NCBI GenBank assembly: GCA_045604905.1
Contig: JAZUOX010000060.1
Span: forward strand, 22,386-86,385
Direction: 5' to 3'
From: Clostridia bacterium
GTDB lineage: Bacteria > Bacillota > Clostridia > UMGS1883
Length of the DNA: 64,000 nt
The position numbers were made by a program, and so were the translations under genes. The notes beneath the pieces are model-generated. The model did no database searches. It saw nothing but the letters and a program-made list of their open reading frames with translations, and had not been told where the DNA came from. Below are positions 7,143-43,580 of this stretch, piece after piece. The stretch's first letter is position 1. Each line of letters begins with the position of its first letter.

Positions 7143-9998
7143 TCAGTTCTCTCCTTTATTTGCATAATCATAAATGTTTGCAACGAAGCGCTTTGCAACG
7201 GGATTTTCTGTTCTTAATTCTGCAAGACAAATTATGTAAAGCTTACCCTCGTATTCCTTTACTGCACAGGCAAGTGCATCGTCCCAGTTTCCGTTTTCGT
7301 CCTTGTTACCTGTTGTAAGAACGGGTGTAAATCCGTCAGCTGTAAATGTCTTGTACAGAATGGGGGTAATCATATCCTCATCCTCATTATACCAGTAGGA
7401 GAAGTCCTTTTCACGGAATTCTTCCACGATAGGATGACCTGTCTTTCTTGATACGAAATGAAGCGGAAGCATACCGCAGTCCTTAACTTTTACAGTTTCC
7501 CCTGCAATCTGATATTCGCCGGGTTCAAGGTCATCAATGATAACAACATTGTCATTAACTTCAATTTCTACGTCTTCAAATACTTCAATGTCATGAGTTG
7601 TGTAGTTTACAACGCTTCCGTTTTCATCAAGAAGAATTGCCTTAAGAGTGAAGATTTCTCTGTCAACAACCTCGTCAATTGTGAAACGGATATCACTTAT
7701 TGCAGTAACATCACAGTTTTTGATTTCTGCCTGTTTTTCGGAAGTCTTTATAAGCTCATCACCTGCATAAAGCTCGTAACGCATCTTGTAATTATCTGTT
7801 TCAAGGTTTGTGTCGTTACAGATAAATGCTTCAACACTTACCTCTTCACCCTCAAAGTATGTCCATTTATCTGTGCGCAGACTTACCATAATCGGCTCAA
7901 GAGCATTTTTATATGCAAAAAATGCCTTTTTAGGATTTCTGTCACAGTCCATAATGGTCTTCATCCAACCGCTGGGCCATGCATCTATAAACAGATGTAT
8001 CGCAAATGAAATCATACGGCTGTCACGACGGTAGGACTCTGCCATAAGCTTTGTAGCAAGTGCCTGATAGCGCTGGCTATGCTCTACCCAATCTTCAACA
8101 TTATCCTGTGTATCGTAGAAGAATCTGTGAAGGTCTTTAGTCTGTGCACCAACTATTTTGCCAATGTCAAGAGGCTCAACAAGCCACTGTGCAGGATAAT
8201 ACTTTCTCATAACCTCGGTGCACTCAAGTCCTTCCGTACCGAATTCACCGCATCCGTAATACCAGCCGGGTTTAACCTGCATCCAGTGTCCTTTGTAGAG
8301 TTTACCGATGTCGATACCGTGACCGTTATACCATGTGGGATAACAGTGATTATCGGGCATACCCTCCGTAGGCGGATCGTAGTCACCGTCAACGTGTTTA
8401 ATTACACGATCGGGGTTATTAAGACGGACTATATAGTCACATGATGTGAAGAAGTTTTCAAGATCGGGACGCTCTAAATGTCTGTGAGGTTGATTCTTTG
8501 CATTTGGGAAAGGCTCATTAATATAAGTAACAACAACGCAAGAAGCGTGGCTTCTTATAAGCTTCTCCATTTCCTCTGCCTGACGGATACCCTCTGCAAC
8601 CTTGTTTCTTCTCATACAACCGAAAAGCGGAAGGTCTGTCTGAATCATAAGACCGAGCATATCGCAATAATTGTAGAATTCTTCCTGAACGGGACGCTGT
8701 GTAATACGAAGATAATTCATATTACAAAGTTTTGCAAGAAGGATATCGTCGATAAGCTGATCGAAATCACCACGCATAACGTCAAGCTGTTCAAATCCCA
8801 TTGTATTTGCACCGCGGAGACGGGTCTTTTTGCCGTTAAGCATAAACATACCCTTCATATCTTCGTTATCAAGGTCCTGACGGAATTCACGCATACCGAA
8901 TTGACGTGAGCGTGTATCTGTAACTTCACCATTATAAATAAGCTCTACCTGCACCTGATAAAGATAAGGTGTTTTTGGTTCCCAGAGCTTCGCATTTTCC
9001 ATAGGAATTTTGAATTTGTATACGTTATTACCTTTTTCTGCAGGCACTTTAAGGGGTTTACCCATAATATCCTTAACATCTGCCTGAGTAAGGCTGTCGC
9101 CCATACCTGCATAGTAAATTGTTTCAGCTTCAAAAGGCATTTTTTCAAATACTTTTTCTTCGAAGTTCTGACCATATACTGAAATTGTAAAATTAAGGTC
9201 TTTAATTACATACTCTGTATTTTCAACCTCAATCCAAACCTCCGCCTTGTTTTCAAAGGGAAGCGGACGAACAAATACATCACTTATATGAGTTTTGTTT
9301 CTGTATTCAATATAAACATCGTCATAAAGACCCATTCCGGGAGGACAATGATGCCAGCCAATCTGACTGTCGTCCCAGCCGATACCTGTTGCAGCGTACA
9401 GCTTATCACCCTCAAGTCGTTCTCCTGTGCCGCAAAAGTCACAGACTCCGCCATATATAAAATCGTTCTTAAGTACAATCTTAAGGTCGTTTTCACCTAT
9501 ATGTACAAACTCTGTTATATTAAATTCAAAGGGTGCGAAAAATCCCTCATGTCTGCCTGCAAATTCACCGTTAATCATAACAGCCGCTTCGTAGTCGGCA
9601 CCACCGATGCAAATATAGATTTCTTTTCCGGGTGCTTCTTCAATATTGAACTTTGTTTCGTAAACCTGCTTTGCATAGCCTACTGGACCACCGTAATAAG
9701 GGATTGTAATCTTTTCTTTTCCGTCAAGGATAAATTCCTTAATGTCCACCCTCTTATTCATTACAGGAAGCTTGGGTGCAAGATTACGAAGGTAAGGCGC
9801 ATATTCTCCCCTCATTTTCTTAAGCTCTGCACGCATTTCCTCTTGAGTGTCCATTTTCTTTTCTGTTTTTACTGCTTCTCCACCATCCTGAAGCTCACAG
9901 ATTTCAATATCCGTAAATTTGGGAGAAGGCTCATAAAGAAGCTCCGCTCTGCCGCCTATACCTCCGGCTGCAATTTCAATAAACTGGTCGTTAGCCAT
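7143..9998 (-). CDS. GH2-family glycoside hydrolase (beta-galactosidase/beta-glucuronidase/beta-mannosidase superfamily)
   Basis: 951 aa and cytoplasmic. The sugar-binding-domain ending GMGLYDDVYIEYR...ISDVFVRP and the TIM-barrel NEP motif (VVTYINEPF) are typical of GH2. Confidence 0.65.
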   Translation of the reverse strand: MANDQFIEIAAGGIGGRAELLYEPSPKFTDIEICELQDGGEAVKTEKKMDTQEEMRAELKKMRGEYAPYLRNLAPKLPVMNKRVDIKEFILDGKEKITIPYYGGPVGYAKQVYETKFNIEEAPGKEIYICIGGADYEAAVMINGEFAGRHEGFFAPFEFNITEFVHIGENDLKIVLKNDFIYGGVCDFCGTGERLEGDKLYAATGIGWDDSQIGWHHCPPGMGLYDDVYIEYRNKTHISDVFVRPLPFENKAEVWIEVENTEYVIKDLNFTISVYGQNFEEKVFEKMPFEAETIYYAGMGDSLTQADVKDIMGKPLKVPAEKGNNVYKFKIPMENAKLWEPKTPYLYQVQVELIYNGEVTDTRSRQFGMREFRQDLDNEDMKGMFMLNGKKTRLRGANTMGFEQLDVMRGDFDQLIDDILLAKLCNMNYLRITQRPVQEEFYNYCDMLGLMIQTDLPLFGCMRRNKVAEGIRQAEEMEKLIRSHASCVVVTYINEPFPNAKNQPHRHLERPDLENFFTSCDYIVRLNNPDRVIKHVDGDYDPPTEGMPDNHCYPTWYNGHGIDIGKLYKGHWMQVKPGWYYGCGEFGTEGLECTEVMRKYYPAQWLVEPLDIGKIVGAQTKDLHRFFYDTQDNVEDWVEHSQRYQALATKLMAESYRRDSRMISFAIHLFIDAWPSGWMKTIMDCDRNPKKAFFAYKNALEPIMVSLRTDKWTYFEGEEVSVEAFICNDTNLETDNYKMRYELYAGDELIKTSEKQAEIKNCDVTAISDIRFTIDEVVDREIFTLKAILLDENGSVVNYTTHDIEVFEDVEIEVNDNVVIIDDLEPGEYQIAGETVKVKDCGMLPLHFVSRKTGHPIVEEFREKDFSYWYNEDEDMITPILYKTFTADGFTPVLTTGNKDENGNWDDALACAVKEYEGKLYIICLAELRTENPVAKRFVANIYDYANKGEN

Positions 9999-10009
9999 TA
10001 TATTTCACC

Positions 10010-10972
10010 TCATTTATTGTCATAGTCGTAACGCCTTACCTGTCCGAGAATATCGGCAGCTGCAACGTTGTATGAATGATTATCTTTAATTGTAGGGTAC
10101 CACGTTGTCATCATATAACCCAGAAGATTTTCCTTACTTATCTGCTCTTTACAGAACTCAGAAAGAAGAGTGATATTCTCGTAAGCCATCCATATACTGC
10201 CTGTAGGAACCTGCTTATAGCCGTGTTTGTCAAGGAATGAATAATACTTATACGCATCCCACAAAGGATAGCTTGGCGTTCCGGGGAACGAGAAATCTCT
10301 GTCATAGTACCATATACTCTGGAGAACTGATTTGGGCATTTTCTTTACATATTCGTTTTCATCCTGAAGTACCACGTTATCGCTCCACATCCATGCACAG
10401 CTTCCGTTCTTTTCAACCTCGTTAATAAGGAAAAGAACATCGTGCCACCATAGGTCACCGTGTCTTACAACTGCATAGCTGTAAGGCTTCTGATGATGAT
10501 ATGCTTCCTCGTCCATACCGATGTGGAAATAATCAGGTGTGTCAAATATTTCGCAGACTTCTTTTATAAGGTCGGCACAAACTCTGTAATAAATGCTTGT
10601 CGAAACCATTCTTGAATATTCACCCAGCCACTCATCGTGAGTTGTGGCAAAATTCAGTTTTGGAATAGGATTAAGACCGATTGAGCGAAGACGTTTTAAT
10701 TCTTCCTTAAGCTCGTCCACGCTCCAGCTGCCATCGATTGCAAGCTCGGGATGTGTTTCGTACTTAACACCTTCACCAAGGTCAATAATAAGTGTATTTA
10801 CACCTTTTAAAACAAGCTCATTTGTAAGTGCAATCCACTCTTCTTTATCAGTACGCATCTTGTCCTCCGCCTTGTGCATAAGGCCACGTGGTGTTCTGTC
10901 AAGGCCGTAAAGCTTACCGTCTTTGTCTGCCCACATATGTGTACCTAAATGAATTAAATACGACCAAATCAT
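10010..10972 (-). CDS. Uncharacterised GH20-like TIM-barrel family protein, paralog 1 (divergent)
   Basis: 320 aa with no signal peptide. It shares the LNFATTHDEWLGEYSRMVST and FHIGMDEE motifs with the seven other paralogs. Confidence 0.6.
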   Translation of the reverse strand: MIWSYLIHLGTHMWADKDGKLYGLDRTPRGLMHKAEDKMRTDKEEWIALTNELVLKGVNTLIIDLGEGVKYETHPELAIDGSWSVDELKEELKRLRSIGLNPIPKLNFATTHDEWLGEYSRMVSTSIYYRVCADLIKEVCEIFDTPDYFHIGMDEEAYHHQKPYSYAVVRHGDLWWHDVLFLINEVEKNGSCAWMWSDNVVLQDENEYVKKMPKSVLQSIWYYDRDFSFPGTPSYPLWDAYKYYSFLDKHGYKQVPTGSIWMAYENITLLSEFCKEQISKENLLGYMMTTWYPTIKDNHSYNVAAADILGQVRRYDYDNK

Positions 10973-10996
10973 ACCAAATTCTCCCTTTTAATTAAT

Positions 10997-11025
10997 CTTT
11001 ATTTTAATTATAAATTTACCGGTAT
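10997..11025 (-). promoter_or_regulatory. Sigma-A-type promoter (TTGACG-17-TATAAT on the minus strand) driving paralog 1 and the downstream GH2/CE15/uxuA block
   Basis: On the minus strand the sequence reads TTGACG ataaataccggtaaatt TATAAT. About 25 nt further on are an AAAGGGAG ribosome-binding site and the ATG at 10972. Two direct repeats, GACAATATATCGGTC and GTCAATATATTGGTC, lie immediately upstream of the -35. Confidence 0.55.
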
Positions 11026-11075
11026 TTATCGTCAAGACCAATATATTGACAAAAGACCGATATATTGTCATTTCA

Positions 11076-13976
11076 TCAGTTTTTTCCTGATTTTTTTATT
11101 GTTTGCGGTGCAATTTTTCCGTCAGCATCAAGAATCATTATTTTGTAAGAATCCGCTTCGGAGAAATCGCCGTCAAAGCTTACGATTGAGTTGCCCGGTG
11201 AAAGAGTGATTTCCTTGACGCTTACCTCGATAAGCTTGCCTTCTTTATAGCCTGCGCAAATCGCATTCACAGCCACGTCGGATGCAGAACTGTTCTTGAC
11301 AGAAGCTTCTGCTATGCCTAAAATATTGCACTTCGTTTCACCGATTATAATCTGCTTTACATCAGACTTAAGAACAAGGTATGCGTTCTTGTCACCGGTT
11401 ACGGTGATGGTATTTCCGTTTATTTCGTAATCAATTTCCGCATAGCCGGTTGTTGATATATCATAAACCTCTGCCGTGTCTGCATCAAATGACTGCGGAA
11501 GGGTTATTCTCTCGCCCTCAACTGCTTCAAGGCAGTCGATAAAGAAATAACTTTCTCCGTTATATTCGATGTCGTAAACGGAAAGGTTTTCACCCTCTTT
11601 TGCAGTATCGCTGAACTTACGATATACAACGCCTTTATAGGGATCACCCTTTACAAGTTCTTTCTGAACTTTGAAAAGCGGATATGATTTAAGGGATTTA
11701 TAGAAATAGTAGGATTCGTTTGTTGCAAGGGTTGACGGTGATTTTTCATAGCTTCTTTCACCTACAGGCAAAAATCCGCTTGCAAAAGCAATTTCAGTTT
11801 CACCGTCTGCATTACGCATATAGTCAATGGTACGGTTTGTAATCTTCGGAGTTATGCCGTCTTCCATCACTTCGCCCCACATAGCTTTACCGATATATCC
11901 GTTGGGGTAATTTTCCGCATAATAGTCGTCTGCTTTACCCGTTGTATAAATAAGCTTCGGAGTTGTGAAATCGTAATTTATACCGCTATATGTAAAAGGC
12001 TTTGATCCGGGAATATATCTGTATGTACCACCGCCAAGATTGAATCTTGGATAATAGCAGTAGCCGATATACATAACCTTTGTATTTGCCATATCAGTAA
12101 GAATTTCGTGGTCAAGCTCCACTATTACAGAGCTTTCCTCGTCAACAATAATTCTCTGATGATAGCTTAAAAGTTCTTCTCCGAGAGCATAACCGATTTC
12201 GGGTGTCCACTCACCTTTTAATTCACGAAGAAGCTGGGGAAGCTTTCTCGGGTCTGTAAGAATGTATTTTTCGTCAAGTACAAGCTTGTCGCAGTTAAGT
12301 TCCTCATAAGTAAAGATATCAAGAGGGATTTCTTCACCGTTACGATAAGCAGTATATGTCTTAACGTGATTTTTTGTAATGGGGAAAATCATCTGTCCTG
12401 TCTGCTGATTGGTAAAGGAAAGTTCTTTACCTGCATATTTTTCTTCTGTGTCTATACAAGTGATTTTACCTGTTTTTATTCCTCCGTCCATTGAGTTTTT
12501 ATGCTGCCAGCTTGTTGAAGACACAAAATCATCCGACATAAAACGGATTGCATTTATATGGTCAATTTTGCAAAGTGTCCATTTTTCACCGCTTTCACTC
12601 TCCCACTGTGTACCAACCCAGCTGTCGTCAAGACCGTGTCCGTTAATTGTAAGCCTCATAGCCATAGGACCGTGGTTTGCACCATAGAAAAGACCGCTGA
12701 AGTTAATGGAAGGGGTATCGTCCTGCGCCTGATTTGCAAGCTGTGTTCTTACTCCGGTTTCCTTATCAATGAGATGCGGAATAAGGTGGTCAATTATGTG
12801 GTTGCTTGTAGTAATTTCCGCAAAACGATGTTCAATTAGTCTATCCTCATCGTAGTCCGATACAACGCTGAGTGCAGGATGTGCATTTGTAGAATCGTGA
12901 AGGTCTGTTGAAGAAGTAATACCTGTTGTAACCTTAAGAGGACCCATTTCATTTTCGTCCATTGTTGTTACTGTGATTGTGTCTTTTGGTGTTGACACTA
13001 CAACGTCATCAATATAGAAATTACCGCCCAGAATACTGAAACGCTGCATACCGAACTTCACTTCAAAAAGACCTGTATATGTAACACCGTCTTTTGCAAA
13101 TGAAACGGGAGCGGAATTTTTCTTTACACCGTCAACATAAAAATCAAGCGTCTCTGTTGCAAAATCAAAATCAATACCTATTCTGTTCGTATTGTTATGT
13201 GTATGAGATGCACCGTTAATCTTTGTGCCGTTTGCATTAAGCACACCTGTAACGGCGCTTTTACCGTTAGATGCAGAAAGAGTATAGCCTATGTATGTAT
13301 CTGTCTTACCGGTAGAATCCTGAAGATAGAAAAGCATATCATATCTTATAAGCTGACCGTAGTCGCTTGCTTCCTTACGAGTGAATGAATACTCGTATTT
13401 AACTCTGTCCGAATCAGGAAGGTCATTCATAATGTGCTTTGTATAATAAGCATAAGACTTTGTTTCTGTTCTGTTATTAAAGCAGTCAAGCACATAATTT
13501 CCGTTATCTTCTCCGATAAGATTCACATAATCGGGGTCTGCAACAGACTGTTGTTCGCCCCAGTTCTTAATAACTGCCATAGGTTTTTCACCGAGAGAAT
13601 CCGGTCTGCCGAAGCCTTCTGATTCTATTATATACGTAGACTTCGCAGGCACTGTAAAGGTAATAACCTTACTATATCCTCCGACAGTTGCAGTAAGGTT
13701 CACAACAGTATCATTTTCCTGCCTTGTAACGGAAGCCTTGTTTCCGCTTATAACTACTGCAGGAGAATCGCTTGTCCATGTAACAGAATTTCCTCCTACA
13801 GCATCAGAAAGCGCCTCTGTATCAAGCGAAAATGTTTTTGCAACTGCATACTTTGACTGACTTGTCAGAAGGTCAAGAGTGATATTTTCCGCAAGGTTTT
13901 CACCTGATGCAAAAGCCAAAGGTACAATATTTAAAACAAGCATTATTGAAATGATGAGTGAAACAATTTTTTTCAT
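11076..13976 (-). CDS. Secreted 966-aa modular carbohydrate-active protein (Ig-like domain + ConA-like jelly-roll module + ~550-aa unassigned region)
   Basis: Signal peptide MKKIVSLIISIMLVLNIVPLAFASG. It carries an Ig-like module (VTWTSDSPAVVISGNKASVTRQENDTVVNLTATV) and a jelly-roll module ending FYIDDVVVS. Both are repeated in the 1765-aa protein at 22728-28025. Confidence 0.55.
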   Translation of the reverse strand: MKKIVSLIISIMLVLNIVPLAFASGENLAENITLDLLTSQSKYAVAKTFSLDTEALSDAVGGNSVTWTSDSPAVVISGNKASVTRQENDTVVNLTATVGGYSKVITFTVPAKSTYIIESEGFGRPDSLGEKPMAVIKNWGEQQSVADPDYVNLIGEDNGNYVLDCFNNRTETKSYAYYTKHIMNDLPDSDRVKYEYSFTRKEASDYGQLIRYDMLFYLQDSTGKTDTYIGYTLSASNGKSAVTGVLNANGTKINGASHTHNNTNRIGIDFDFATETLDFYVDGVKKNSAPVSFAKDGVTYTGLFEVKFGMQRFSILGGNFYIDDVVVSTPKDTITVTTMDENEMGPLKVTTGITSSTDLHDSTNAHPALSVVSDYDEDRLIEHRFAEITTSNHIIDHLIPHLIDKETGVRTQLANQAQDDTPSINFSGLFYGANHGPMAMRLTINGHGLDDSWVGTQWESESGEKWTLCKIDHINAIRFMSDDFVSSTSWQHKNSMDGGIKTGKITCIDTEEKYAGKELSFTNQQTGQMIFPITKNHVKTYTAYRNGEEIPLDIFTYEELNCDKLVLDEKYILTDPRKLPQLLRELKGEWTPEIGYALGEELLSYHQRIIVDEESSVIVELDHEILTDMANTKVMYIGYCYYPRFNLGGGTYRYIPGSKPFTYSGINYDFTTPKLIYTTGKADDYYAENYPNGYIGKAMWGEVMEDGITPKITNRTIDYMRNADGETEIAFASGFLPVGERSYEKSPSTLATNESYYFYKSLKSYPLFKVQKELVKGDPYKGVVYRKFSDTAKEGENLSVYDIEYNGESYFFIDCLEAVEGERITLPQSFDADTAEVYDISTTGYAEIDYEINGNTITVTGDKNAYLVLKSDVKQIIIGETKCNILGIAEASVKNSSASDVAVNAICAGYKEGKLIEVSVKEITLSPGNSIVSFDGDFSEADSYKIMILDADGKIAPQTIKKSGKN

Positions 13977-15698: not shown

Positions 15699-16652
15699 TC
15701 AATCCTTCCAGTGGTCGTCAACTGCTTTTTTACTATGTACAATCGCTGAAAAGTGAATATACTTGTCAAGCTCTGTTGTGTCACACCAGGGTGCAACGAG
15801 TAATCCCTTAAGATGCTCCGGCGCAATGTTTTCCTTAGAAAATCTTACCTGATGGTCAAAATTGTATTTTGCACTATGATTTGAGCCACAGGGAAGCTGA
15901 TCGTAACCCTCATCACTGAGCTTTCTGTAATTTTCAAGTCTTGCCTTACTCCACGGGTCCTTGGGAAGGGGTGCTGATGCATCCTCGTACATATGGCAGT
16001 AATACCAGGGACTGATAAGAACGTCCTTGGGTACATTTTCAATAAATTCGTCATAGTGAGTCCACGACCAGTCTGCCCATATCCAGGGGCGTGAGCCGTT
16101 CTCACGAACGCAGTCAAAATAAAAATTAAGGTCTTGCCAGATAAGTTCAAACTGACGGTATGCCGCAAAAGTGAGCTTCTGCTGATTAAGACCGTTTTCT
16201 TCATCAAGGCCGAGATGGAAAAGCTCGGGCGTTTCGAAAATTTCACAAACTTCTTTTATAAGGTCTTTTACAACCTCATAGTATTTTGGTGTAGAAAGCA
16301 TTCTTGAATATACGCCTAGCCAGGCATCGTGACCTGCCGAGAAGTTCAGCTTCGGGAATACTTTTAGTCCCATTTTTTTAAGACGCTTAACCTCGTCATT
16401 CATAAACTCAGGAGTCCACGCACCCTCAACCGCAATTTCGGGATGTGATTTATAGAGAATACCGTCACCAACGTCTACAAGAATAGAGTTAAAACCGTGA
16501 GCTACGGCAAAATCAATGATTTCGTCCCACGCCTTTTTTTCTGTATTAAGTTTAAGGGAAAATCTTGCACCTGTGCAGGCAGGTCTTGTAGCTGAATCCT
16601 CCCACATATTGTCGCTGAGGTATAACATTAAGCATAAAAGTTTATCTTTCAT
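15699..16652 (-). CDS. Uncharacterised GH20-like TIM-barrel family protein, paralog 2 (group B)
   Basis: 317 aa. Motifs LSDNMWED, LNFSAGHDAWLGVYSRM and FHLGLDEENG. Cytoplasmic. Confidence 0.6.
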   Translation of the reverse strand: MKDKLLCLMLYLSDNMWEDSATRPACTGARFSLKLNTEKKAWDEIIDFAVAHGFNSILVDVGDGILYKSHPEIAVEGAWTPEFMNDEVKRLKKMGLKVFPKLNFSAGHDAWLGVYSRMLSTPKYYEVVKDLIKEVCEIFETPELFHLGLDEENGLNQQKLTFAAYRQFELIWQDLNFYFDCVRENGSRPWIWADWSWTHYDEFIENVPKDVLISPWYYCHMYEDASAPLPKDPWSKARLENYRKLSDEGYDQLPCGSNHSAKYNFDHQVRFSKENIAPEHLKGLLVAPWCDTTELDKYIHFSAIVHSKKAVDDHWKD

Positions 16653-16671
16653 TTTTAAAAACTCCTTTATA

Positions 16672-17628
16672 TTAATCTAAAAACTTACTTTTAACCTCGG
16701 CAACGTGTTCAAGTGCCGCAAAATATCTGTATTTGTGTCTTTCGGTAGTGCTTCTTCCTGAAGTAATCATAAAGCCACTTACCTTATCCCATACGGCGTT
16801 ATCCTTTGTAAATCTGACATTATGCTCAAAGGAAAAAGGCGTGAACGAATCATTTGCACCGCAGGGGATAATTTCATAACCTGCTTCCGAAAGCTTTTTA
16901 TAGCTGTCACGCATATTAACGTGATCAGTAGCATCAATAAGAGGAGCCTGAGGGTCAGAATACATATGATTGTGGTAATAAGGACTTACAAGAACGTCTT
17001 TTCCGATGTTATTCTCAAAGCGTTCAAAATCCTTTGCCGCAATATGTCCCCATATCCATGGACGTACACCCTTATCTCTTACACACTGAAGCATAAAGTT
17101 AAGATCCTCCATAAGAAGGTCAAACTGTCTGTAGCAAGCATATGTAAGATTTCTCTGGCTTTCCTCATCCTCGTTATTCATACCAAGGTGGAAAAGCTCG
17201 GGATTTTCAAATATATCACATACCTCATAAATAAGGTCTTTCACCACATCGTGATAGTCGGGCGTGCCGAGCATTCTTCCATATACGCCAAGCCACGCAT
17301 CGTGCGCCGCAGAGAAGTTAAGCATAGGAACTACCTTGAATCCCATTTTCTTGAGGCGTCTTACTTCCTCTGTCATATATTCGGGAGTCCAGCCGCCTTC
17401 TTCAAGCCAAAGTTCGGGATGTGACTTATAGTTAATACCGTCGGCAAGGTCAATTACAAGGGTAGTTATCCCCTTTTCCTTTGCTCCGTCAACTATCTGG
17501 TCCCAAGCCGCCTTTTCTGTAATCATTTTTGTATTGAAAACCTCACCTTTAAAGTTTGGTTTAGTTTTAGAGTCGTTTCCTGTATTATCGCCAAGGGTTA
17601 TAATTAAGCATAAATCTTTATTATACAT
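16672..17628 (-). CDS. Uncharacterised GH20-like TIM-barrel family protein, paralog 3 (group B, DE->NN variant)
   Basis: 318 aa and roughly 70% identical to paralog 7. The H-x-G motif reads HLGMNNEDEE, so the Asp/Glu positions are replaced. Confidence 0.6.
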   Translation of the reverse strand: MYNKDLCLIITLGDNTGNDSKTKPNFKGEVFNTKMITEKAAWDQIVDGAKEKGITTLVIDLADGINYKSHPELWLEEGGWTPEYMTEEVRRLKKMGFKVVPMLNFSAAHDAWLGVYGRMLGTPDYHDVVKDLIYEVCDIFENPELFHLGMNNEDEESQRNLTYACYRQFDLLMEDLNFMLQCVRDKGVRPWIWGHIAAKDFERFENNIGKDVLVSPYYHNHMYSDPQAPLIDATDHVNMRDSYKKLSEAGYEIIPCGANDSFTPFSFEHNVRFTKDNAVWDKVSGFMITSGRSTTERHKYRYFAALEHVAEVKSKFLD

Positions 17629-17630
17629 AC

Positions 17631-18590
17631 TTATTTTCCTCCAAAGAATTGTTCTCTTGTGTAACTTGCCTGATAGATTGCATCAAAATAGTAGTACTTG
17701 GATGAACCATTAACAGGCGACCAACAACCGGTGATTGCCATACCTATAATTTTATCAAGAACGGCATTTTCGGTTGCATATCTTACATTATGTTCAAAGT
17801 TAAACGTACTTTCGTTAGAACCGCCCTGAAGCCATAGGTCGTAGCCCGCTTCCGTCAGCTCCTTAAAAGCTTCAAGACGCTTTGTACTCCACGGGTCTGT
17901 AAGCTTCGGACGAGCGGCATCAAAGTAAAGATTGTTATAAAACCAGTTACTTATAATAACGTCACGGGGGACATTTGCTAAAAATTCCTCGGGAAAGCTC
18001 CAGAAATAGTCCGCATCGATGTTCGGCCTTACGCCCTTTTGTCGGATGCAGTCGCACAGATAATTTATATCGTGCCATTGAAGATCCCTCTGTCTGTAGC
18101 AGGCATACTGCACTCTTCCCTGATTAAGTCCATTTTCTTCGTCCATTTCAATAGCCATCATTTCAGGAGTATTAAAGAGGTCGCAAACCTCAAAAATCAG
18201 GTCACGGACAACTTCATAATATTTCGGCGTTGACACCATACGGGAATAAATCCCGAGCCATACATCGTGACCTGCCGAGAAGTTAAGGCGCGGATAAGCC
18301 TTAAGTCCTTTGGAATAAATATACGAAAGTTCTTCTTTAAGTTCATCCGTTGTCCATGCACCTTCAATTGCAATTTCGGGATGAGATTCATAGCGGATGC
18401 CATTTGCAAGGTTTATGTAAAGGCTGTCGATTCCGTTTTCCGCTGCCATATCAACAACCTCTCTCCACGCTTTTTTCTCTGTCAGAAGTTTTGTGTTAAA
18501 AAGCTCACCCGTACACCACGCCTCTGTATCAGAATCATTCCAACAGTTACCTGCAAGATATAAAATAAGACACCAGTTGTCATTTATCAT
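17631..18590 (-). CDS. Uncharacterised GH20-like TIM-barrel family protein, paralog 4 (group A)
   Basis: 319 aa. Motifs LAGNCWNDS, LNFSAGHDVWLGIYSRMVST and IEMDEENGLNQ. It ends in GGK. A 2-nt spacer separates it from the next gene. Confidence 0.6.
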   Translation of the reverse strand: MINDNWCLILYLAGNCWNDSDTEAWCTGELFNTKLLTEKKAWREVVDMAAENGIDSLYINLANGIRYESHPEIAIEGAWTTDELKEELSYIYSKGLKAYPRLNFSAGHDVWLGIYSRMVSTPKYYEVVRDLIFEVCDLFNTPEMMAIEMDEENGLNQGRVQYACYRQRDLQWHDINYLCDCIRQKGVRPNIDADYFWSFPEEFLANVPRDVIISNWFYNNLYFDAARPKLTDPWSTKRLEAFKELTEAGYDLWLQGGSNESTFNFEHNVRYATENAVLDKIIGMAITGCWSPVNGSSKYYYFDAIYQASYTREQFFGGK

Positions 18591-18591
18591 A

Positions 18592-19548
18592 TTATTTTCC
18601 TCCGTTCATTTTATCAATAGAATACCTTGCCTGATTGATTGCATCAAGATTGTAGTTCACGGTTTCAGGCACAGGAGATTCCCAGCTGCCGCAAATCTGA
18701 AGTCCGAGGATTTTACTTTCGTCAAGAGTTTCCTTTGCAAGCTTTATTAACTGCTCAAAATTAAAGCTGTTTATTCCTGCACCGCAGAGGAATATATCAT
18801 AACCCGCCTCTGTAAGTGCTTTAAAGCTTTTAAGCCTGTTATCGCTCCAGTAATCAGCAGGTCTGGGGTGTGCATCGTCAAAAAAGAGTGTGTCATAATA
18901 CCAGTTGGTAAGTGCAACATCCCTGGGTACATTTTGAAGAAATTCCTCGGGATGTGACCAGTAGTAATCGGCACACATACTGGGTCTTACTCCCTTTTCA
19001 CGGATGCAGTCACAAAGATAGTTTACATCGTGCCAGATTAATTCACCCTGACGGTAGCATACATACTGCAATCTTCCCTGATTAAGTCCGTTTTCCTCGT
19101 CATATTCAAGGCTGAAAAATTCAGGAGTATCGAAAATGTCAATAATCTCATGAATTAAATCCTTTGCAACCTCGTAATACTTCTTTGTTGAAACCATTCT
19201 TGAATATTCACCGAGCCACGCATCGTGTGCCGCTGAAAAATTAAGCATAGGATACGGAGTAAGACCAATACTTCTTAAATAGTCAAGCTCACTTTTAAGT
19301 AAGTCAACCTCCCACGCATTTTTTACCGCTATTTCAGGATGTGATTTATACTTTATACCGTTTGAAAGGTTTATAAATATACTGTCACATCCGTTTTTTG
19401 CCGCATGGTCTACTGTTTTTCGCCAACATTCATAATCAAGACGCATTTCGGGTCTGAATACGTTACCGTTACACCAGGGGACATCTACAGAGTCGTTCCA
19501 GCAGTTTTCGGCAATCCATACCATCATAGAAAGTCTGTTAATACCCAT
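18592..19548 (-). CDS. Uncharacterised GH20-like TIM-barrel family protein, paralog 5 (group A)
   Basis: 318 aa. Motifs IAENCWNDS and LEYDEENGLNQ. It ends in GGK. A 1-nt spacer separates it from paralog 4. Confidence 0.6.
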   Translation of the reverse strand: MGINRLSMMVWIAENCWNDSVDVPWCNGNVFRPEMRLDYECWRKTVDHAAKNGCDSIFINLSNGIKYKSHPEIAVKNAWEVDLLKSELDYLRSIGLTPYPMLNFSAAHDAWLGEYSRMVSTKKYYEVAKDLIHEIIDIFDTPEFFSLEYDEENGLNQGRLQYVCYRQGELIWHDVNYLCDCIREKGVRPSMCADYYWSHPEEFLQNVPRDVALTNWYYDTLFFDDAHPRPADYWSDNRLKSFKALTEAGYDIFLCGAGINSFNFEQLIKLAKETLDESKILGLQICGSWESPVPETVNYNLDAINQARYSIDKMNGGK

Positions 19549-20508
19549 TTAATTGACCTCTTTCATTTTATCCCACGAATATTTCCACTGATAGATTGCA
19601 TCAAGGTAATAGTACTTATTTTCCTCCATAGGTGCTTCCCAGCTGCCGCACATCAAAACACCGTTTATCTTATTTTCATCAAGCTTTTCACGGGCAAAAC
19701 GGATTGTCTGCTCCGCATTATAGTTGTTTTCGTTTGAAGCGGGCTGGAGCATAATATCAAAGCCTGCATTTGTAAGTGCCTCGAATGCACCGAGGCGGTT
19801 AAGCGACCAGGGATGTGTAGGCTTCGGATGTGCTTCATCAAAATAAAGAAGTCCGTAATGCCATGGGCATACAAGCACATCTTTAGGTACATTTGCGATA
19901 AATTCTTCGGGATAAGACCAATAGTAGTCAGCACCTATACAGGGGCGTACTCCCTTTTCGCGGACACAGTCGCAAAGGTAATTAACATCGTGCCAGATAA
20001 GGTCAAACTGACGGTAGCAGGCATAACGAAGCCTGCCCTGATTAAGTCCGTTTTCTTCATCAAGAACAAGTGACATAATTTCGGGAGTATCAAAGATATC
20101 GCAAACCTCGTGAATCAGTTCTTTTGCAACCTCGTAATACTTCTGTGTTGAAACCATTCTTGAATATTCACAAAGCCACACATCGTGCCCTGCGGAGAAG
20201 TTAAGACGGGGGTAAAATTTAAGCCCTTTTTCCTTGTAACGCCTTACTTCTTCTTGCATAAATTCGGGAGTCCAAGCACCCTCCACTGCAATTTCGGGAT
20301 GTGATTTATACTTAATTCCGTTTGCAAGGTCAATAATTACGCTGTCAAAGCCACACTGGAGTGCCTTGTCGCATATTTCACGGAATGTATTTACGTCTGC
20401 ACGAAGGACAGGCTGATACAAAACGCCTGTACACCACGGAATTTCTGCAGAATCATTCCAGCAGTTATCTGCAAGACATATAAGTAAACAGGTTCTGTCT
20501 GTAATCAT
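19549..20508 (-). CDS. Uncharacterised GH20-like TIM-barrel family protein, paralog 6 (group A)
   Basis: 319 aa. Motifs LADNCWNDS and LVLDEENGLNQ. Its stop abuts the start of paralog 5 with no spacer. Its start is 2 nt after the GH105 stop. Confidence 0.6.
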   Translation of the reverse strand: MITDRTCLLICLADNCWNDSAEIPWCTGVLYQPVLRADVNTFREICDKALQCGFDSVIIDLANGIKYKSHPEIAVEGAWTPEFMQEEVRRYKEKGLKFYPRLNFSAGHDVWLCEYSRMVSTQKYYEVAKELIHEVCDIFDTPEIMSLVLDEENGLNQGRLRYACYRQFDLIWHDVNYLCDCVREKGVRPCIGADYYWSYPEEFIANVPKDVLVCPWHYGLLYFDEAHPKPTHPWSLNRLGAFEALTNAGFDIMLQPASNENNYNAEQTIRFAREKLDENKINGVLMCGSWEAPMEENKYYYLDAIYQWKYSWDKMKEVN

Positions 20509-22727: not shown

Positions 22728-25700
22728 TTAATTAGTAAGTTCTGCCGTAACAGAAGCTATTTTTATATCTGAAGACCCATTGATTGTAAAATCAGTCTTT
22801 AAGCGTTCCATATTGTCAAGGCACGCACCTGCAATGTTAAGAGTAACTGTTTTAAGCGCCCCTGTTCCCGTACGGGGTATTTTTTCAGTATTCTTAACAA
22901 GGCGGTTTCTTGTTTCCCCAATTTCAAAAGTATAATAGGTAAAGTTAAAAGAGTCTGTACCCTCGTCAAGATAGGTGATTGTCACCTTTACATTGCCCTC
23001 CGGCTGATATGCGACTTCATTCTTGACATTTACACGCATAATGTTGCCTTCTGGAAGATTGTAAAGAGTCTTTCCATTGTGTGAAACTTCACTTACTTCA
23101 CTGTCACAGCCCGCATAGCTGAAACTGTCGCAGCTGTCTGAAAGGTCATACCATCCGCCATCAGGTGCATTTTCGATTATATCCGATACATCTGCCCATC
23201 CGATTCTTATAATCTTACCAGTTTCGTCATAGTGGCCGAACCACACCTTTGTACCGTCAATGTTAAATGCGGGATGACAGTGTCCGGGGTTAACGCCTGT
23301 CTGCTTTACTCTTGCAACAACGTGACTTACACCTGTGTAACAGTCAATAAGCACTATGTCTGAATATTCACCGTTGCTGTACCCTGTATCTGCTACTGCC
23401 CAGCGGTTACTTACGGGACTTGTTGCAACGTGGTTATATGCATAGTCACTGTTTATGTAATTACGTTCTGTTCCGTCATATTTAATGGAAACTATACCTG
23501 GATAACCGATTGCGGAACTACCCGAAGATTTATGGAACACAATATGCTCGCCGTCGTAGGACCACATTTCGTGACAGGCAATTTCCCCTGCAGATTTCGC
23601 TGAATAGAATCTTGGAACAAATACATTGTAGTATTCGTCAGTATCTGTATTAAGAACCCACAATCTGTCGTTTACGGAAGTACCTTCGTGACAAAACAGG
23701 AGAAGATTTGGCTTTACGGGGTTAATCGAAACGTGATTGGGGTCATACCATTCTGTATCAAATACATAGTTGTGGCTTAAATCCCACTCGCCCGTCTTAA
23801 GATCAAGAATCGGGAATCTTGACCCCTCTGAAAGGAGCTTATCGTTCCATTCCACGGAAAGCTTTTCCTCTGTATCCATTACCTGAAGCATTCCTGCATA
23901 GTCTGCATATTCTTCCGGAATGACACCCACAACCCTTTTCTCGTAAGTGTCAATATCCATACGGATAATTTCACTGTTGCGGTTAATGTAGAACAATCCG
24001 TTAAGAGGCGTTGTTACAACATTATGCTCACGCTCACATGTGTCAATATACTTTACACTGCTTGTATTTATATCATACTCATAAATTTTAAAGTTATCGT
24101 CGCGGACGAAGAACTTATTTCCATCTTTTGACCAGCCCTGCATAGTAAAGTAGCTTCTTATCATATTTTTGCCGTTAAAGTCTACCCAGTTATATGTCCT
24201 ACCTGAAATAGGACAAGTCATCTCTCCTGATATAACTTCACGGTTAAGCTCATTTTTAAAGCAAAGCTGTTCTATGTAAGGATGAGCAAAATTCTTGTCA
24301 AAAACATATACTTTGACAACCGAAAGTTCCGGATACGGCGACAGTTTGAAATCTTCGAATATAAGTTCTTCTGCAGTTGAGCTGTCTGTATCAAGGTCAA
24401 TTGACTTAAGCTTGATATTTGTCATTGTCGATCCTTGATATTCACAAACTGCAACGCTTACCTTCTTTACTTCTTCCGTCTGATTATAAAGACGGACATT
24501 TACATCAATACTTCCGTCAAGTGCTTCTTCAATAGCACCGATGATTCTTCCGTCTGATGAGAATATACTGTTTGAAACAACATCCCCTGCAGCTGTATAT
24601 GCGGCAAAATTATCAAATGAAAGCTGACCTGACTGTGTTCTGAAGTTTGTAAAACGAATATCCTCAACGTTATAAAGTGCCTGGTCTTTTCTTGTAACAC
24701 ACTCTAAAAGACCTATGGGAGCCTCGTTAATTTTCACCCCGTCAATAAAATAGTCTGCCGTCTGGGTTGCTGTATTAACCTCAATTCTGAGAGTGAACCA
24801 TTCATCAAGCACAGGAGCTGTATTCATAAGGTAAATGCTTCTTACTGTACCCTTATCATCCTGACGTCTTGCAAACATAAATTCACGGTAACCCTCGTAA
24901 TAGAAACAGCAGTCAACAATCTGTGCCCTTTCTTTTGTTCCGTCAGGCAAAAGATAGTTTCCGTACATATGGAAGAAATAATACTGTGGCGTATCTGAGT
25001 GATTAAATTTCAGGTCCGTTTCAAAAGCCACTTTGTGCTGAGATGTTGTAGGGAATTTGTACTGAATAAATTTCTGCGACCCGCTTGTGCCTTCACGCCA
25101 TGTATGCATAATGTGATTTTTGTTTTTATCGACTTCTAGCGCTGTTTTATAAAGTGCGTCACTGTATGTTGTTATTCCCATTTGAGAGTCAGTAATCTCA
25201 TGTATTCCCTTTCCTACACTTTCGGGATAATAGAAAGAATCTGAATAATACACTGCCTTATCTTTTGAAAGAACTCTGTACTCAAGTTCCTTGTCTATTG
25301 AAAACTCTTTTCCTTTTTGTGAAATCGATGCAGTAATTGTAACAGCGGTATCTTCTATAGGACGTTTTACAATACCCACGCCTTGCTCGCTGTCAATATC
25401 AATAACAGAAGGATTACTACTCTCAAAGGTGATTTCTACATCTGAAAAATCAATACCTGTAAGCTTTGCATAATTAAAATCAAGATTTTTTGTTACATGA
25501 TTTACGGACTCTGCCGTAAACACTTCCGGATTAAATCTCTTTGCAATGTTTGATATTTTGCTGTATTCTTCATCGCACAAAACAGTGTAAACAAGCTCTT
25601 TTGAAATTGACGCTCCATTCTTTTCAAGAGTAACGGTAAGCGTTACAGTTGAATCATACTTATCTCTTGTGACCGTGCCGTCTTCAGACAGAATATTGCT

Positions 25701-28025
25701 GTTACTTGATAAATAAGTTACTGTTATGTCATTATCAGAGATATATTCAGCCCATTTGTGATTTATTAAATCAAGGTCGGTGGTAATTAAATCTTTGTCT
25801 TCTGATGTAAAATCAGTTTCTTCAAGATTATTGTACAGATAGAATATTTCAGGATTTTCATTATACCACCGTGGGTTATCTGTAATACTTACATCATCTA
25901 TAAAAAGGTTTCCCTTGCCGTACTGACGGAATGTATTGAATTCAAAGTCGTTGTAGCCCATAAATTCTGTTCTGTCAACAGAGGGATTAAGAACATCGTT
26001 AAAATGAATGGGTTCACTGTTAACCTTTACATCATTTATGAAAAGGTCAAGAGTCAATGAGTCTTCGTAATATCTCCATTCAAAGTCTGCCCACTCGCCC
26101 ACTTCCGGCAAATAATCCTTTGAAAAATAAATTGTTTGGCTTTTTTCACCGTTATGAACGGGCATGTAAATGTTGTATGCACCGTTGGCTTCATATCGGA
26201 AGTTTGTTTCATTCAGCCATACACGTTTGTTTTCACCGTTCACCTTAAATATTCCGTATGTTCTGAACACATAAATCTGCGGTGCGTCAGCATGCTCAAA
26301 CTTCATACGCATGCGGTGAATAATGTCACCCTTTGGTTTTTCACCAAGAATGTAATAAGTGCTGTTGCCTTCCTCCATTCCTATAGGGCGATATGAATGA
26401 AGCAGATACTTCTCATCCTCCACATCAATATAGCTTTTAAATCTCTGCCCGGAAGTTGTGTCCTCGGAAAGCTGTGTTGCATATCTTGAAGACCAGCCGT
26501 ACGTTCCCGAAATCGGAGGTGTGACATTTGTTTCCGAACGTATTATTCCGGGAACATCGTAAAGTATCATTCCTTTGCCTTCGGGATAATAAAAGTTTTC
26601 CGACATATGTACCTTTGTAGTTTGTCTGAGAACTTTAAAGTAAAGTTTATTTGTCCAACTCTTTCCCTCGCCATTTACAGTTGCAGTAATTTCCACGGGG
26701 GTATCACGGTAAAGGTCACGGGTAACGTAGCCAGTATTTTCACTTATAATAATAGCGTCGCTATTACTTGCAAATGTTACGGTATAACCATCAGGAAGGA
26801 AATTCTCCGGATTAAGGTCAAGATTTTCTGTTATAACATCTCTTGGCTCGTTTGTAAGCATTTCTTCAGTTACATTAAAATGATCCAAGTCATTTTCTTT
26901 TATACTAGTTACAGATAAATCATCTATATATACTTTTCCGCCTGTAAATGTACGGAAAATGTTAAAGTCAATATCATTTATATCCACAAAATTCGCACGG
27001 TCTGCACCCTCTTTATCTCTTTCGTAGAAGGGTATGCTTTCCGTCGTTACTTTTGCGTCGTTTATGTACATATCCCAAATTTGGGCATCTGTGTCAATAA
27101 GCCATTCAATCTTTGCTTCTTCCCCAACCTTGGGCATATCTTCTTTTTTAACGTAAGCGGACTTAACTTCACTGCCGCTGTAATAGGACATATAGGTTGA
27201 GGATGCACCGTTTTGGTCATATTTATAGTTTATTTCAAAAATGCGTGCTCTTTCATAAGCGCTGTCTACATAATAATTACCGAAAGCACGGAATACGTAA
27301 ATCTGTGTGCCCGGTTCGTGATCAAATGTGACATCAGCCTTGACGGACACCTTGCCCGAAGGTTTGTCACCGAATACATAATGTAAAAAGTTATAGTCGC
27401 TGTCTACGGCAACATCACGGTATGCATTAAGGAAATAGTCACCGTTTACTTCATCTGTAATTGCTTTGAATCTGTTTGCCGCTACGCTGTCACCTTCAAG
27501 CTCTGTTGCAAAGGCGAATGCCCATCCCTCTTCTGTGTCTCTTGTAGGCGATGGTATAGTTTTACTTATTTTAAGAGATCTTTCCTCTGTGAAAAGTTTT
27601 CCTTTGTTATTAGGATAATAGAAATTCTCCGACATATGGGCTTTTGTTGTCTGTCTGAGAACTGTAAAATTAAGTTCTTTGGTAAAAACTTTGCTACCAT
27701 CACTTACTGTTGCTGTAAGTGTTACCGGTATATCATGGTAGAGGTTGCGCACAACATGCGCAACCTCACCATCAATTGCTATGGCGTTAGAGTTACTTTC
27801 AATGCTTACGCTGACACCTGCGGGAAGAATATCGCTTAAATCAAGGTCAAGATTCTTTGTTATTGCATCTGTAACCTCATTTGTGAGCATTTCTTCGCAA
27901 ATGAGTTCCGCAAAAGAAGCTGCATCACTGCCTGCTGTGTAGCCATCCATTGGCATACATCCGCATACAAGCACAAATGCACATATTATTGACATAATTC
28001 TTCTGTAAAGCTTTGAATGTAACAT
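22728..28025 (-). CDS. Giant secreted 1765-aa multi-module protein with a PL22 (oligogalacturonide lyase-like) beta-propeller domain
   Basis: Signal peptide. Four [Ig-like ~80 aa + ConA-like jelly-roll ~250 aa] modules. The C-terminal region carries the PL22 motifs LLLFCHEGTSVNDRLWVLN, CHEMWSYDGEH and NPGHCHPAFNIDGTKVWF. A terminal ~110-aa domain with the VTITYLDEG motif is shared with two other proteins in the cluster. Confidence 0.7.
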   Translation of the reverse strand: MLHSKLYRRIMSIICAFVLVCGCMPMDGYTAGSDAASFAELICEEMLTNEVTDAITKNLDLDLSDILPAGVSVSIESNSNAIAIDGEVAHVVRNLYHDIPVTLTATVSDGSKVFTKELNFTVLRQTTKAHMSENFYYPNNKGKLFTEERSLKISKTIPSPTRDTEEGWAFAFATELEGDSVAANRFKAITDEVNGDYFLNAYRDVAVDSDYNFLHYVFGDKPSGKVSVKADVTFDHEPGTQIYVFRAFGNYYVDSAYERARIFEINYKYDQNGASSTYMSYYSGSEVKSAYVKKEDMPKVGEEAKIEWLIDTDAQIWDMYINDAKVTTESIPFYERDKEGADRANFVDINDIDFNIFRTFTGGKVYIDDLSVTSIKENDLDHFNVTEEMLTNEPRDVITENLDLNPENFLPDGYTVTFASNSDAIIISENTGYVTRDLYRDTPVEITATVNGEGKSWTNKLYFKVLRQTTKVHMSENFYYPEGKGMILYDVPGIIRSETNVTPPISGTYGWSSRYATQLSEDTTSGQRFKSYIDVEDEKYLLHSYRPIGMEEGNSTYYILGEKPKGDIIHRMRMKFEHADAPQIYVFRTYGIFKVNGENKRVWLNETNFRYEANGAYNIYMPVHNGEKSQTIYFSKDYLPEVGEWADFEWRYYEDSLTLDLFINDVKVNSEPIHFNDVLNPSVDRTEFMGYNDFEFNTFRQYGKGNLFIDDVSITDNPRWYNENPEIFYLYNNLEETDFTSEDKDLITTDLDLINHKWAEYISDNDITVTYLSSNSNILSEDGTVTRDKYDSTVTLTVTLEKNGASISKELVYTVLCDEEYSKISNIAKRFNPEVFTAESVNHVTKNLDFNYAKLTGIDFSDVEITFESSNPSVIDIDSEQGVGIVKRPIEDTAVTITASISQKGKEFSIDKELEYRVLSKDKAVYYSDSFYYPESVGKGIHEITDSQMGITTYSDALYKTALEVDKNKNHIMHTWREGTSGSQKFIQYKFPTTSQHKVAFETDLKFNHSDTPQYYFFHMYGNYLLPDGTKERAQIVDCCFYYEGYREFMFARRQDDKGTVRSIYLMNTAPVLDEWFTLRIEVNTATQTADYFIDGVKINEAPIGLLECVTRKDQALYNVEDIRFTNFRTQSGQLSFDNFAAYTAAGDVVSNSIFSSDGRIIGAIEEALDGSIDVNVRLYNQTEEVKKVSVAVCEYQGSTMTNIKLKSIDLDTDSSTAEELIFEDFKLSPYPELSVVKVYVFDKNFAHPYIEQLCFKNELNREVISGEMTCPISGRTYNWVDFNGKNMIRSYFTMQGWSKDGNKFFVRDDNFKIYEYDINTSSVKYIDTCEREHNVVTTPLNGLFYINRNSEIIRMDIDTYEKRVVGVIPEEYADYAGMLQVMDTEEKLSVEWNDKLLSEGSRFPILDLKTGEWDLSHNYVFDTEWYDPNHVSINPVKPNLLLFCHEGTSVNDRLWVLNTDTDEYYNVFVPRFYSAKSAGEIACHEMWSYDGEHIVFHKSSGSSAIGYPGIVSIKYDGTERNYINSDYAYNHVATSPVSNRWAVADTGYSNGEYSDIVLIDCYTGVSHVVARVKQTGVNPGHCHPAFNIDGTKVWFGHYDETGKIIRIGWADVSDIIENAPDGGWYDLSDSCDSFSYAGCDSEVSEVSHNGKTLYNLPEGNIMRVNVKNEVAYQPEGNVKVTITYLDEGTDSFNFTYYTFEIGETRNRLVKNTEKIPRTGTGALKTVTLNIAGACLDNMERLKTDFTINGSSDIKIASVTAELTN

Positions 28026-43579: not shown

Positions 43580-43580
43580 A

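Follow-up and report, generated by a model that had tools for sequence, protein, structure and literature searches.

Eight paralogous genes and their D-E-E column

The 64-kb stretch of Clostridia bacterium DNA analyzed here, hereafter the window, carries eight paralogous genes, W1 to W8, each encoding about 317-320 amino acids and all lying on the minus strand. Five of them, W2 to W6, are arrayed head to tail at 15699-20508, W1 stands apart at 10010-10972, and W8 and W7 lie together at 44543-42629. The same ungapped alignment column reads D-E-E in six of the eight (W1, W2, W4, W5, W6, and W8) and is altered in W3 and W7, the two proteins at issue here. W3 reads ...LFHLGMNNEDEESQ..., with N151, N152, and E153 encoded by AAT AAC GAG at 17178-17170, and W7 reads ...LFHIGMNEEGEDSQ..., with N-E-E encoded by AAT GAA GAA at 43135-43127, both on the minus strand. 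The divergence that a first-pass annotation of this DNA had reported, HLGMNNEDEE in paralog 3 and HIGMNEEGED in paralog 7, is real, with Asn at the Asp and first Glu positions of the former and at the Asp position of the latter.

Some of the detail in that annotation has to be revised. Its consensus for the six other paralogs, H(L/I)G(L/M)DEE, describes W1 and W2 but not W4 (AIEMDEE), W5 (SLEYDEE), W6, or W8 (both SLVLDEE), which have lost both the His and the Gly. The string LDEENGLNQ, given as invariant, is conserved in W2, W4, W5, and W6 as DEENGLNQ only, since the residue before it is L, M, Y, or L, respectively, and W8 has DEENWTNQ at this place. W3 and W7, described as about 70% identical, were measured at 66%.

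We place the starts of W7 and W8 at the ATGs at 43579 and 44543, both of which have GGAGG ribosome-binding sites upstream and give protein lengths that agree with those of orthologues; a gap of 1 nucleotide then separates the W7 start from the W8 stop. The longest open reading frames (ORFs) of the two genes (42629-43657 for W7, which overlaps the preceding gene by 77 nucleotides, and 43581-44759 for W8) are probably upstream over-extensions. A plus-strand ORF of 200 amino acids at 16822-17424 is taken to be a mechanical shadow of the minus-strand W3 gene. The paralogs lack a signal peptide, and the proteins begin at strand β1.

A small family of distant GH20 relatives

The Pfam model for GH20 (PF00728) scores W2 at 20.6 bits and W7 at 16.6 bits, both under the cut-off of 22.3. 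A Pfam search gave no PF00728 match for W3, and no NCBIfam match was found for any of the eight paralogs, which leaves this a family without a Pfam or NCBIfam model of its own. Homology to GH20 is nevertheless clear despite the sub-threshold Pfam score because a family profile, built from 76 members and searched against PDB sequences, reaches Niako3494 (8BAL) at E = 1.9e-13; TrdeGH20 (9FYM/9FYL) follows at 2.5e-7, with 7CBN and 3GH4 weaker. AlphaFold2 models of W3 and W2 (predicted local distance difference test, pLDDT, of 94.6 and 95.7) are both (β/α)8 barrels with eight β/α units, and when the W3 model is compared with the PDB by Foldseek, the best 50 matches are all GH20 (E 5e-13 to 4e-9, template modeling score about 0.6, 11-15% identity). 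GH85 gave no Pfam match at E ≤ 1, no PDB profile match at E ≤ 10, and none of the top 50 folds, and PF16126 (DUF4838, the domain of GH163 and GH185) is matched by none of the eight paralogs. Taken together, sequence and models predict that the eight genes encode an uncharacterized family of cytoplasmic, single-domain (β/α)8 proteins that are distant relatives of GH20.

The closest known systems are the two best profile and fold matches, TrdeGH20 (9FYL/9FYM, a LacNAcase/lacto-N-biosidase) and Niako3494, which belong to CUPP group GH20:19.1. Like these enzymes, the window family consists of a lone (β/α)8 domain of ~320-380 amino acids, and the two share SHPE after β2, N-x-x-x-x-H after β3, H-x-G-x-D-E at β4, W-x-W-x-D after β5, W-x-Y after β6, and a Trp after β8. 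Unlike them, the window family falls under the Pfam GH20 cut-off, its likeness stops at the low identity and fold score just given, and it has an invariant third Glu and Arg167 where the GH20:19.1 enzymes have Val and a Cys cluster. The family is small, since HMMER, run exhaustively over 1.84 billion representatives clustered at 50% identity, recovered 880 clusters at E ≤ 1e-3 and, with the threshold at E ≤ 1e-10, 451. Its members come mostly from Clostridia, Planctomycetota, Verrucomicrobiota, Lentisphaerota, and Kiritimatiellota.

The GH20 catalytic residues in W3 and W7

The proposal that the DE pair of these proteins is the GH20 dyad is supported by profile alignment to four solved GH20 enzymes. 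The GH20 D-E falls on positions 1-2 of D-E-E in all four (e.g., IHVGLDEV, FHVGLDEV, IHIGGDEA, and IHLGGDES), and the AlphaFold models of W2 and W3 place these positions in the loop directly after β4. We took residue roles from TrdeGH20 and Niako3494 and located their counterparts in W3 numbering. The catalytic residues of TrdeGH20, Asp188 and Glu189 (PMC11776370), correspond to positions 151 and 152, which are Asn and Asn in W3 and Asn and Glu in W7. The subsite -1 Trp273 corresponds to position 217 (Tyr in W3, Trp in W7), the oxazolinium-stabilizing catalytic Tyr275 to position 219 (His in W3, Phe in W7), and the β8 stacking Trp329 to position 291 (Gly in both). The β1 Trp counterpart at position 17 is also Gly in W3 and W7 alike, and Trp232 is retained in both as W193. 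Relative to the GH20:19.1 enzymes, both proteins are thus without the Asp, the Tyr, and the β8 Trp, and W3 is also without the Glu. Scored over seven residues (W17, D151, E152, W193, W217, Y219, and W291), W1 and W2 retain 7/7, W4, W5, W6, and W8 retain 6/7, W7 retains 3/7, and W3 retains 1/7. The Tyr and Trp cage of GH20 subsite -1 is intact in neither W3 nor W7.

If the alignment were shifted in register, D154-E155 of W3 (within NNEDEE) would become the Asp-Glu dyad and the apparent loss would be an artifact. There is indeed a D-E three residues downstream in W3, and every member of the paralog-3/7 clade has E155, but we consider this explanation highly improbable. No indel occurs in the segment across the 76 aligned sequences, so that gapped alignment restores no dyad in W3 or W7, and D154 is unconserved, being Gly or Asn in relatives and Gly in W7. 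The W3 model has β4 at 145-149, then residues 151-153, and a short helix at 155-158; the W2 model has β4 at 144-146, D-E-E at 150-152, and a short helix at 154-157. The two registers are identical because W3 has a single extra residue at position 75, and since the models share the β4 end and the helix, E155 starts this helix rather than following the strand. A shifted alignment was rejected on these grounds.

The H-x-G-x-D-E after β4, a GH20 feature, is present in W1 and W2 and reads H-L-G-M-N-N in W3 and H-I-G-M-N-E in W7. W4, W5, W6, and W8, which are of one active-site type, have the D-E without the H-x-G. These four keep D-E-E, the Tyr, and the β8 Trp and have lost both β5 Trp residues, a second, different remodeling of the pocket within the same array that is conserved in orthologues; W-x-W has become NID, SMC, CIG, and AIG and H-x-G has become AIE, SLE, and SLV. 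His195 is restricted to W3 and relatives at ≥97% identity; His at both 195 and 219 is likewise found only there and, with H147 and H221, makes the pocket rich in His.

Stepwise change and purifying selection in the paralog-3/7 clade

The clade that contains W3 and W7 is known so far only from a few related uncultured gut Clostridia/Oscillospiraceae. Position 151 is Asn in 15/17 of its non-redundant members, which come from several independent metagenome-assembled genomes (MAGs) and metagenomes, and Asp in 93% of the other 181 family members. We reject a chance or artefactual origin of the substitution because Asn151 recurs across these independent sources, and an assembly or sequencing error is ruled out by the same observation of shared residue states. 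The order of events can be read from relatives. E155 came earliest, since P0012 carries it and is otherwise canonical; D151N came next, with Asn151 and the other six scored residues intact in P0009 and P0011 and an additional Phe219 in P0010; and the Trp and Tyr losses came last. R292, like E155, is older than the Asp-to-Asn change, both being seen in the canonical relatives P0012, P0030, and P0032.

Setting 11 non-redundant orthologues of W3, which are 80% identical on average, against the other 181 family members shows where constraint has been released. Variability among W3 orthologues peaks, over the whole protein, at site 219 (2.66 bits; H, F, E, A, V, I, and Q all occur); site 152, with N, G, E, or D, ranks within the top 15, and site 291 alternates between Gly and Trp. 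At position 151, P0001, which is 97% identical to W3, has Asp through a single AAT/GAT difference. Of the 68 sites with ≥80% conservation among the other 181 members, just five vary in W3 orthologues (74, 126, 152, 219, and 258), and only two have been re-fixed to another residue (W17G and D151N). The cleft residues H70, E72, N104, H109, D110, W112, E153, R167, W191, and W193 are all retained, and E155, R292, R297, and R240 are clade-specific invariant charged residues.

W3 and W7 might also be decaying copies, pseudogenes in the making, since catalytic residues have been lost and W3 has the highest dN/dS (ratio of nonsynonymous to synonymous substitution rates, here pairwise Nei-Gojobori) of the eight paralogs. 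The values themselves make this scarcely credible. W3 against its orthologues in at least four species gives 0.07-0.15, W7 gives 0.047-0.068, and the neighboring paralogs in the same genome pairs give 0.006-0.12, so that W3 evolves faster than the other seven, though by a small margin. With dN/dS values of 0.05-0.15, W3 and W7 are maintained genes, and these values, which span at least four species, effectively refute pseudogene decay. Intact reading frames with ribosome-binding sites, the continued conservation of 63 of the 68 family-conserved sites, and a fold predicted at high confidence all argue the same way. W3 and W7 show a sequence-level hallmark of pseudoenzymes, replacement of catalytic residues while fold and purifying selection are kept.

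The closest genome match is a MAG labeled Clostridia bacterium (JAZQAO010000054), with 98% identity for W3. Three further MAG species have W3 orthologues at 88, 79, and 75% identity, one of them labeled Oscillospiraceae, and W7 orthologues occur in 3/4 of the MAG species with W3 orthologues. Divergence along the array is mosaic. Against locus L008, W4 is 100% identical (synonymous divergence, dS, of 0) and W3 98% identical (dS 0.04), while W1 and W2 have dS of 0.42-0.44 and W5 and W6 of 0.17-0.19; against L011, W1, W2, W7, and W8 are 97-99% identical, W3 76%, and W4 67%. Recombination between lineages appears to have swapped the W4-W3 segment (16672-18590).

Recurrent degeneration and an invariant third Glu

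Degeneration of the catalytic set is not confined to this clade. In a set of 116 cluster representatives aligned over every key column, 103 have D151, 107 have E152, 106 have Y219, and 103 have W291, and about 11 clusters (~10%) are degenerate, with the motifs QKE, GDE, NEE, ANE, DGE, EDE, ESE, NNE, and EEE. These members split over several separate groups of a neighbor-joining tree. Across 198 non-redundant sequences, a residue other than Asp at 151 co-occurs with loss of Y219, W291, W217, and W17 (Fisher p 6e-18 to 8e-8, uncorrected for phylogeny). The first-pass annotation had read the W3 and W7 changes as subfunctionalization inside the array, but the clade is older, being present in at least four MAG species, and is one of several independent degenerations rather than a recent event within this array.

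In every case for which context is available, the gene directly upstream of a degenerate member is a canonical or near-canonical paralog, often with stop and start codons overlapping or nearly abutting. Tandem duplication alone would suffice to produce such adjacency. Other lineages have tandem pairs of a near-canonical member followed by a degenerate one (E-D-E, D-D-E, N-D-E, or N-E-E), at L016 5534-9632, at L017, L019, and L022 (~9995-11937), and at L020, L021, L026, L039, and L074; L016 has two pairs in succession, and stops and starts overlap in some pairs (e.g., 6559/6556 and 10993/10990).

The third Glu, encoded at 17170-17172 in W3, behaves quite differently. E153 is present in 116/116 representatives, W112 in 116/116, and R167 in 115/116, so that Glu153 and Arg167 are more conserved than the GH20-type Asp-Glu pair itself, and GH20 enzymes carry Val, Ala, or Ser at the E153 position. 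One possibility is that E153 is the true acid of the family, so that the motif would follow the D/N-x-E pattern of GH18 and GH85; the other is that it is buried, pairs with the invariant Arg167, and takes the place of the GH20 Val/Ala.

Genomic setting

Besides the eight paralogs, the locus encodes a GH88 protein, a CE15 glucuronoyl esterase, UxuA, a GH2 protein, a DUF4838 protein, an amidohydrolase, and AraC-type regulators, together with two very large proteins with PL22-like propellers and an SLH-domain protein (Table 1). This gene content points to a glucuronate-containing glycan as the putative substrate. The large proteins (1765, 968, 966, and 907 amino acids) have aBig_2 domains and weak matches to oligogalacturonate-lyase (PL22-like) propellers, with most of their length free of Pfam matches; with the SLH-domain protein of 578 amino acids found among them, they are probably the cell-surface depolymerizing machinery of the locus. 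The arrangement of W7 and the DUF4838 gene is kept in L001 and L012.

Table 1. Positions in the window of the paralogs, of selected W3 residues, and of neighboring genes.
Feature	Position	Strand	Remarks
W1 (paralog 1)	10010-10972	-	Canonical HIGMDEE
W2 (paralog 2)	15699-16652	-	HLGLDEE; 7/7 scored catalytic and subsite -1 residues; canonical sister clade of W3/W7
W3 (paralog 3)	16672-17628	-	318 aa; predicted GH20-like (β/α)8, degenerate catalytic set
G17 of W3	17578-17580	-	Loop after β1; Trp in 87% of other family, Gly in 14/17 clade members
H147-L-G149 of W3	17182-17190	-	H-x-G kept, end of strand β4 (145-149)
N151 N152 E153 of W3	17170-17178	-	151, GH20 Asp polarizer; 152, Glu acid/base; E153, family-invariant
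E155 of W3	17164-17166	-	Glu invariant in paralog-3/7 clade, 3% elsewhere in family
H195 of W3	17044-17046	-	W-x-W-x-D motif after β5; Asp in ≥90% of family
Y217-Y218-H219 of W3	16972-16980	-	Counterpart of TrdeGH20 W273-x-Y275; both replaced (PMC11776370)
G291-R292 of W3	16753-16758	-	After β8; Trp329 counterpart is Gly; Arg invariant in clade
W4 (paralog 4)	17631-18590	-	
W5 (paralog 5)	18592-19548	-	
W6 (paralog 6)	19549-20508	-	
W7 (paralog 7)	42629-43579	-	316 aa from ATG at 43579
W8 (paralog 8)	43581-44543	-	320 aa from ATG at 44543; adjoins W7 on upstream side
DUF4838 protein	40597-42600	-	667 aa; PF16126 E = 3e-16; directly downstream of W7
Large-protein set and SLH protein	22728-28025, 32521-35427, 11076-13976, 28040-30763, 30783-32519	-	
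709-aa protein	3848-5977	-	Between CE15 and UxuA; sub-threshold PF02838 (GH20 N-terminal domain), 20.4 bits; another candidate glycosidase

Interpretation of the W3 and W7 active sites

Our interpretation starts from an ancestral family member that would have carried H-x-G-x-D-E-E, the Tyr after β6, and a Trp after each of β1, β5, β6, and β8. This set would have served as the GH20 substrate-assisted apparatus, with the Asp orienting and polarizing the 2-acetamido group, the Glu acting as acid/base, the Tyr stabilizing the oxazolinium, and the Trp residues cradling the sugar and its N-acetyl group. Along the paralog-3/7 line, Glu155 would have been gained first, and Asp151 would then have been exchanged for Asn with everything else intact at first. 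The β1 Trp, the Tyr, and the β8 Trp would have been lost after this, and the paralog-3 line would additionally have lost the β6 Trp and the acid/base Glu. Selection would have kept W3 and W7 for a role that uses the remaining cleft residues listed above, with W3 presumably made alongside the neighboring canonical paralogs in a locus degrading a glucuronate-containing glycan. On the sequence evidence, this reading as a whole, in which GH20-type substrate-assisted chemistry has been lost and W3 and W7 are retained for binding or for an altered catalysis, is the most likely of those considered, although we give it equal weight for and against.

Its parts can be held with different firmness: the residue states, the mapping onto GH20, the fold, the purifying selection, and the localized release of constraint are shown, and the lost activity and the new role are inferred from them. 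Activity of the D437N mutant of VhGlcNAcase, a GH20 enzyme, is undetectable, and E438A/Q retain less than 0.5% (PMC4752478), and activity also falls strongly when Phe, His, or Gln replaces the conserved Tyr (PMC10570127). Given these mutant precedents and the relaxed acid/base and Tyr sites, we judge that the W3 line has very likely ceased to perform GH20-type substrate-assisted hydrolysis. W7 would hydrolyze N-acetylhexosamine (HexNAc) glycosides in the GH20 manner weakly at best. For W3, we favor a role as a noncatalytic glycan-binding or auxiliary protein, since a newly installed catalytic site is hard to square with variation at five of the seven positions of the pocket in close orthologues. 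The earlier suggestion that paralogs 3 and 7 are mechanistically altered gains from the correlated loss of Tyr and Trp in subsite -1 and from the release of constraint at the same sites.

Several considerations weigh against this reading or limit it. The Asp-to-Asn change alone is no proof of inactivity because natural amide polarizers exist, Asn in GH85 and Gln174 in GH185 (PMC10570127). If E153 is the acid/base, in a D/N-x-E arrangement, then the N-x-E of W3 and W7 could still be catalytic. The invariant E155, R292, R297, and R240 are as compatible with a new ligand or a new chemistry as with a dead site, and a pure binding protein in the cytoplasm, encoded in a catabolic operon, has no obvious job. 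W7 orthologues, at 96-99% identity, are too alike for a test of relaxation at the W7 catalytic sites. Finally, our literature search returned no characterized member of the family; the relatives or precedents that it yielded were limited to the GH20:19.1 enzymes and GH185.

The first of these considerations could be taken further. W3 and W7 might still be substrate-assisted HexNAc-ases in which Asn151 works as in GH85, through an imidic-acid tautomer, or like Gln174 of GH185, with the invariant Glu153 (or Glu152 in W7) as acid/base and with altered kinetics, such as a bias toward transglycosylation. Both precedent families, represented by Endo-A and Endo-D (GH85) and Sp_0475 (GH185), are themselves substrate-assisted TIM-barrel hexosaminidases with an amide side chain at the polarizer position (PMC10570127). 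N-x-E is found in 15/17 members of the paralog-3/7 clade, with E153 invariant, and W7 keeps E152, W193, and W217. Since P0009 and P0011 have Asn151 and six intact scored residues and are otherwise canonical, a functional Asn enzyme is implied at an early stage of the clade. The GH85 motif is N-x-E, which the conserved N151-x-E153 of the clade resembles at the β4 end, as a sequence pattern alone. However, a sequence relationship to GH85 or GH185 is undetectable, and GH85 requires its own Tyr for hydrolysis; the catalytic Tyr is kept in those families, whereas its counterpart is gone from both W3 and W7, as are the β8 and β1 Trp residues. W3 has also lost W217 and E152, site 219 is hypervariable, and Asp-to-Asn mutants of GH20 are inactive (PMC4752478). 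We regard an amide polarizer as a serious alternative but a distinctly unlikely one for W3 and W7 together; its best candidates are W7 and the early-branching Asn-only members.

Another possibility is a new enzymatic function, in which the remodeled pocket would act, by cleavage or modification, on a sugar lacking a 2-acetamido group, perhaps a uronate-containing oligosaccharide. Two carboxylates would then replace substrate assistance, and the removal of the Trp cage and Tyr, the retention of E153 and E155, and the fixation of R292, R297, and R240 would belong to one change. This would account for the new invariant charged residues at or near the old catalytic center and for strong purifying selection on both W3 and W7 in several species. 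It would also suit an operon with GH88, PL22-like proteins, CE15, UxuA, GH2, and DUF4838, and the degenerate members elsewhere that have their own conserved motifs (E-D-E, D-D-E) beside canonical ones resemble a diversification of specificity. On the other hand, the -1 pocket residues 219, 152, 291, 195, and 151 vary freely among close orthologues, which is unexpected for a new site, and E155 and R292 precede the Asp-to-Asn change. To our knowledge, a classical two-carboxylate mechanism is also without precedent among clan GH-K folds. We consider a new function a serious alternative, though a rather unlikely one.

More speculatively, and as a long shot, either position 1 and the third Glu form the true catalytic pair, with convergence on GH85, or the tandems of canonical and degenerate members are obligate heteromers. 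If the former were true, the family would be a D-x-E, GH18-like one on a GH20-like scaffold, the paralog-3/7 clade would have converged on the N-x-E of GH85, and this clade would be a natural intermediate linking three clan GH-K mechanisms. If the latter were true, the degenerate subunit would supply binding or regulation.

Relation to known degenerate glycosidases and implications

The GH18 chitinase-like lectins, such as YKL-40 and Ym1, have lost the catalytic acid while keeping the fold and the sugar-binding cleft under purifying selection. By analogy, W3 and W7 resemble these chi-lectins as paralogs within a clan GH-K substrate-assisted family; the chi-lectins, in contrast, are secreted, eukaryotic proteins with demonstrated glycan binding, whereas W3 and W7 are predicted to be cytoplasmic, belong to a bacterial catabolic operon, and are known from sequence. 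Degenerate glycosidase paralogs are thus already known, and here they occur in an undescribed GH20-like family, as a graded series, and with recurrent independent losses.

In about 1 in 10 clusters of this family, the substrate-assisted set has been taken apart independently, with the fold and the invariant Glu-Arg pair left in place. For annotation, this means that the fold alone is insufficient for labeling such genes hexosaminidases. W2, W3, W7, and the Asn-only intermediates form a natural series for testing how much of the GH20 apparatus catalysis needs. Such a series could show whether an Asn polarizer works on a GH20-like scaffold, and it could show what degenerate glycosidase paralogs do in bacterial catabolic operons.

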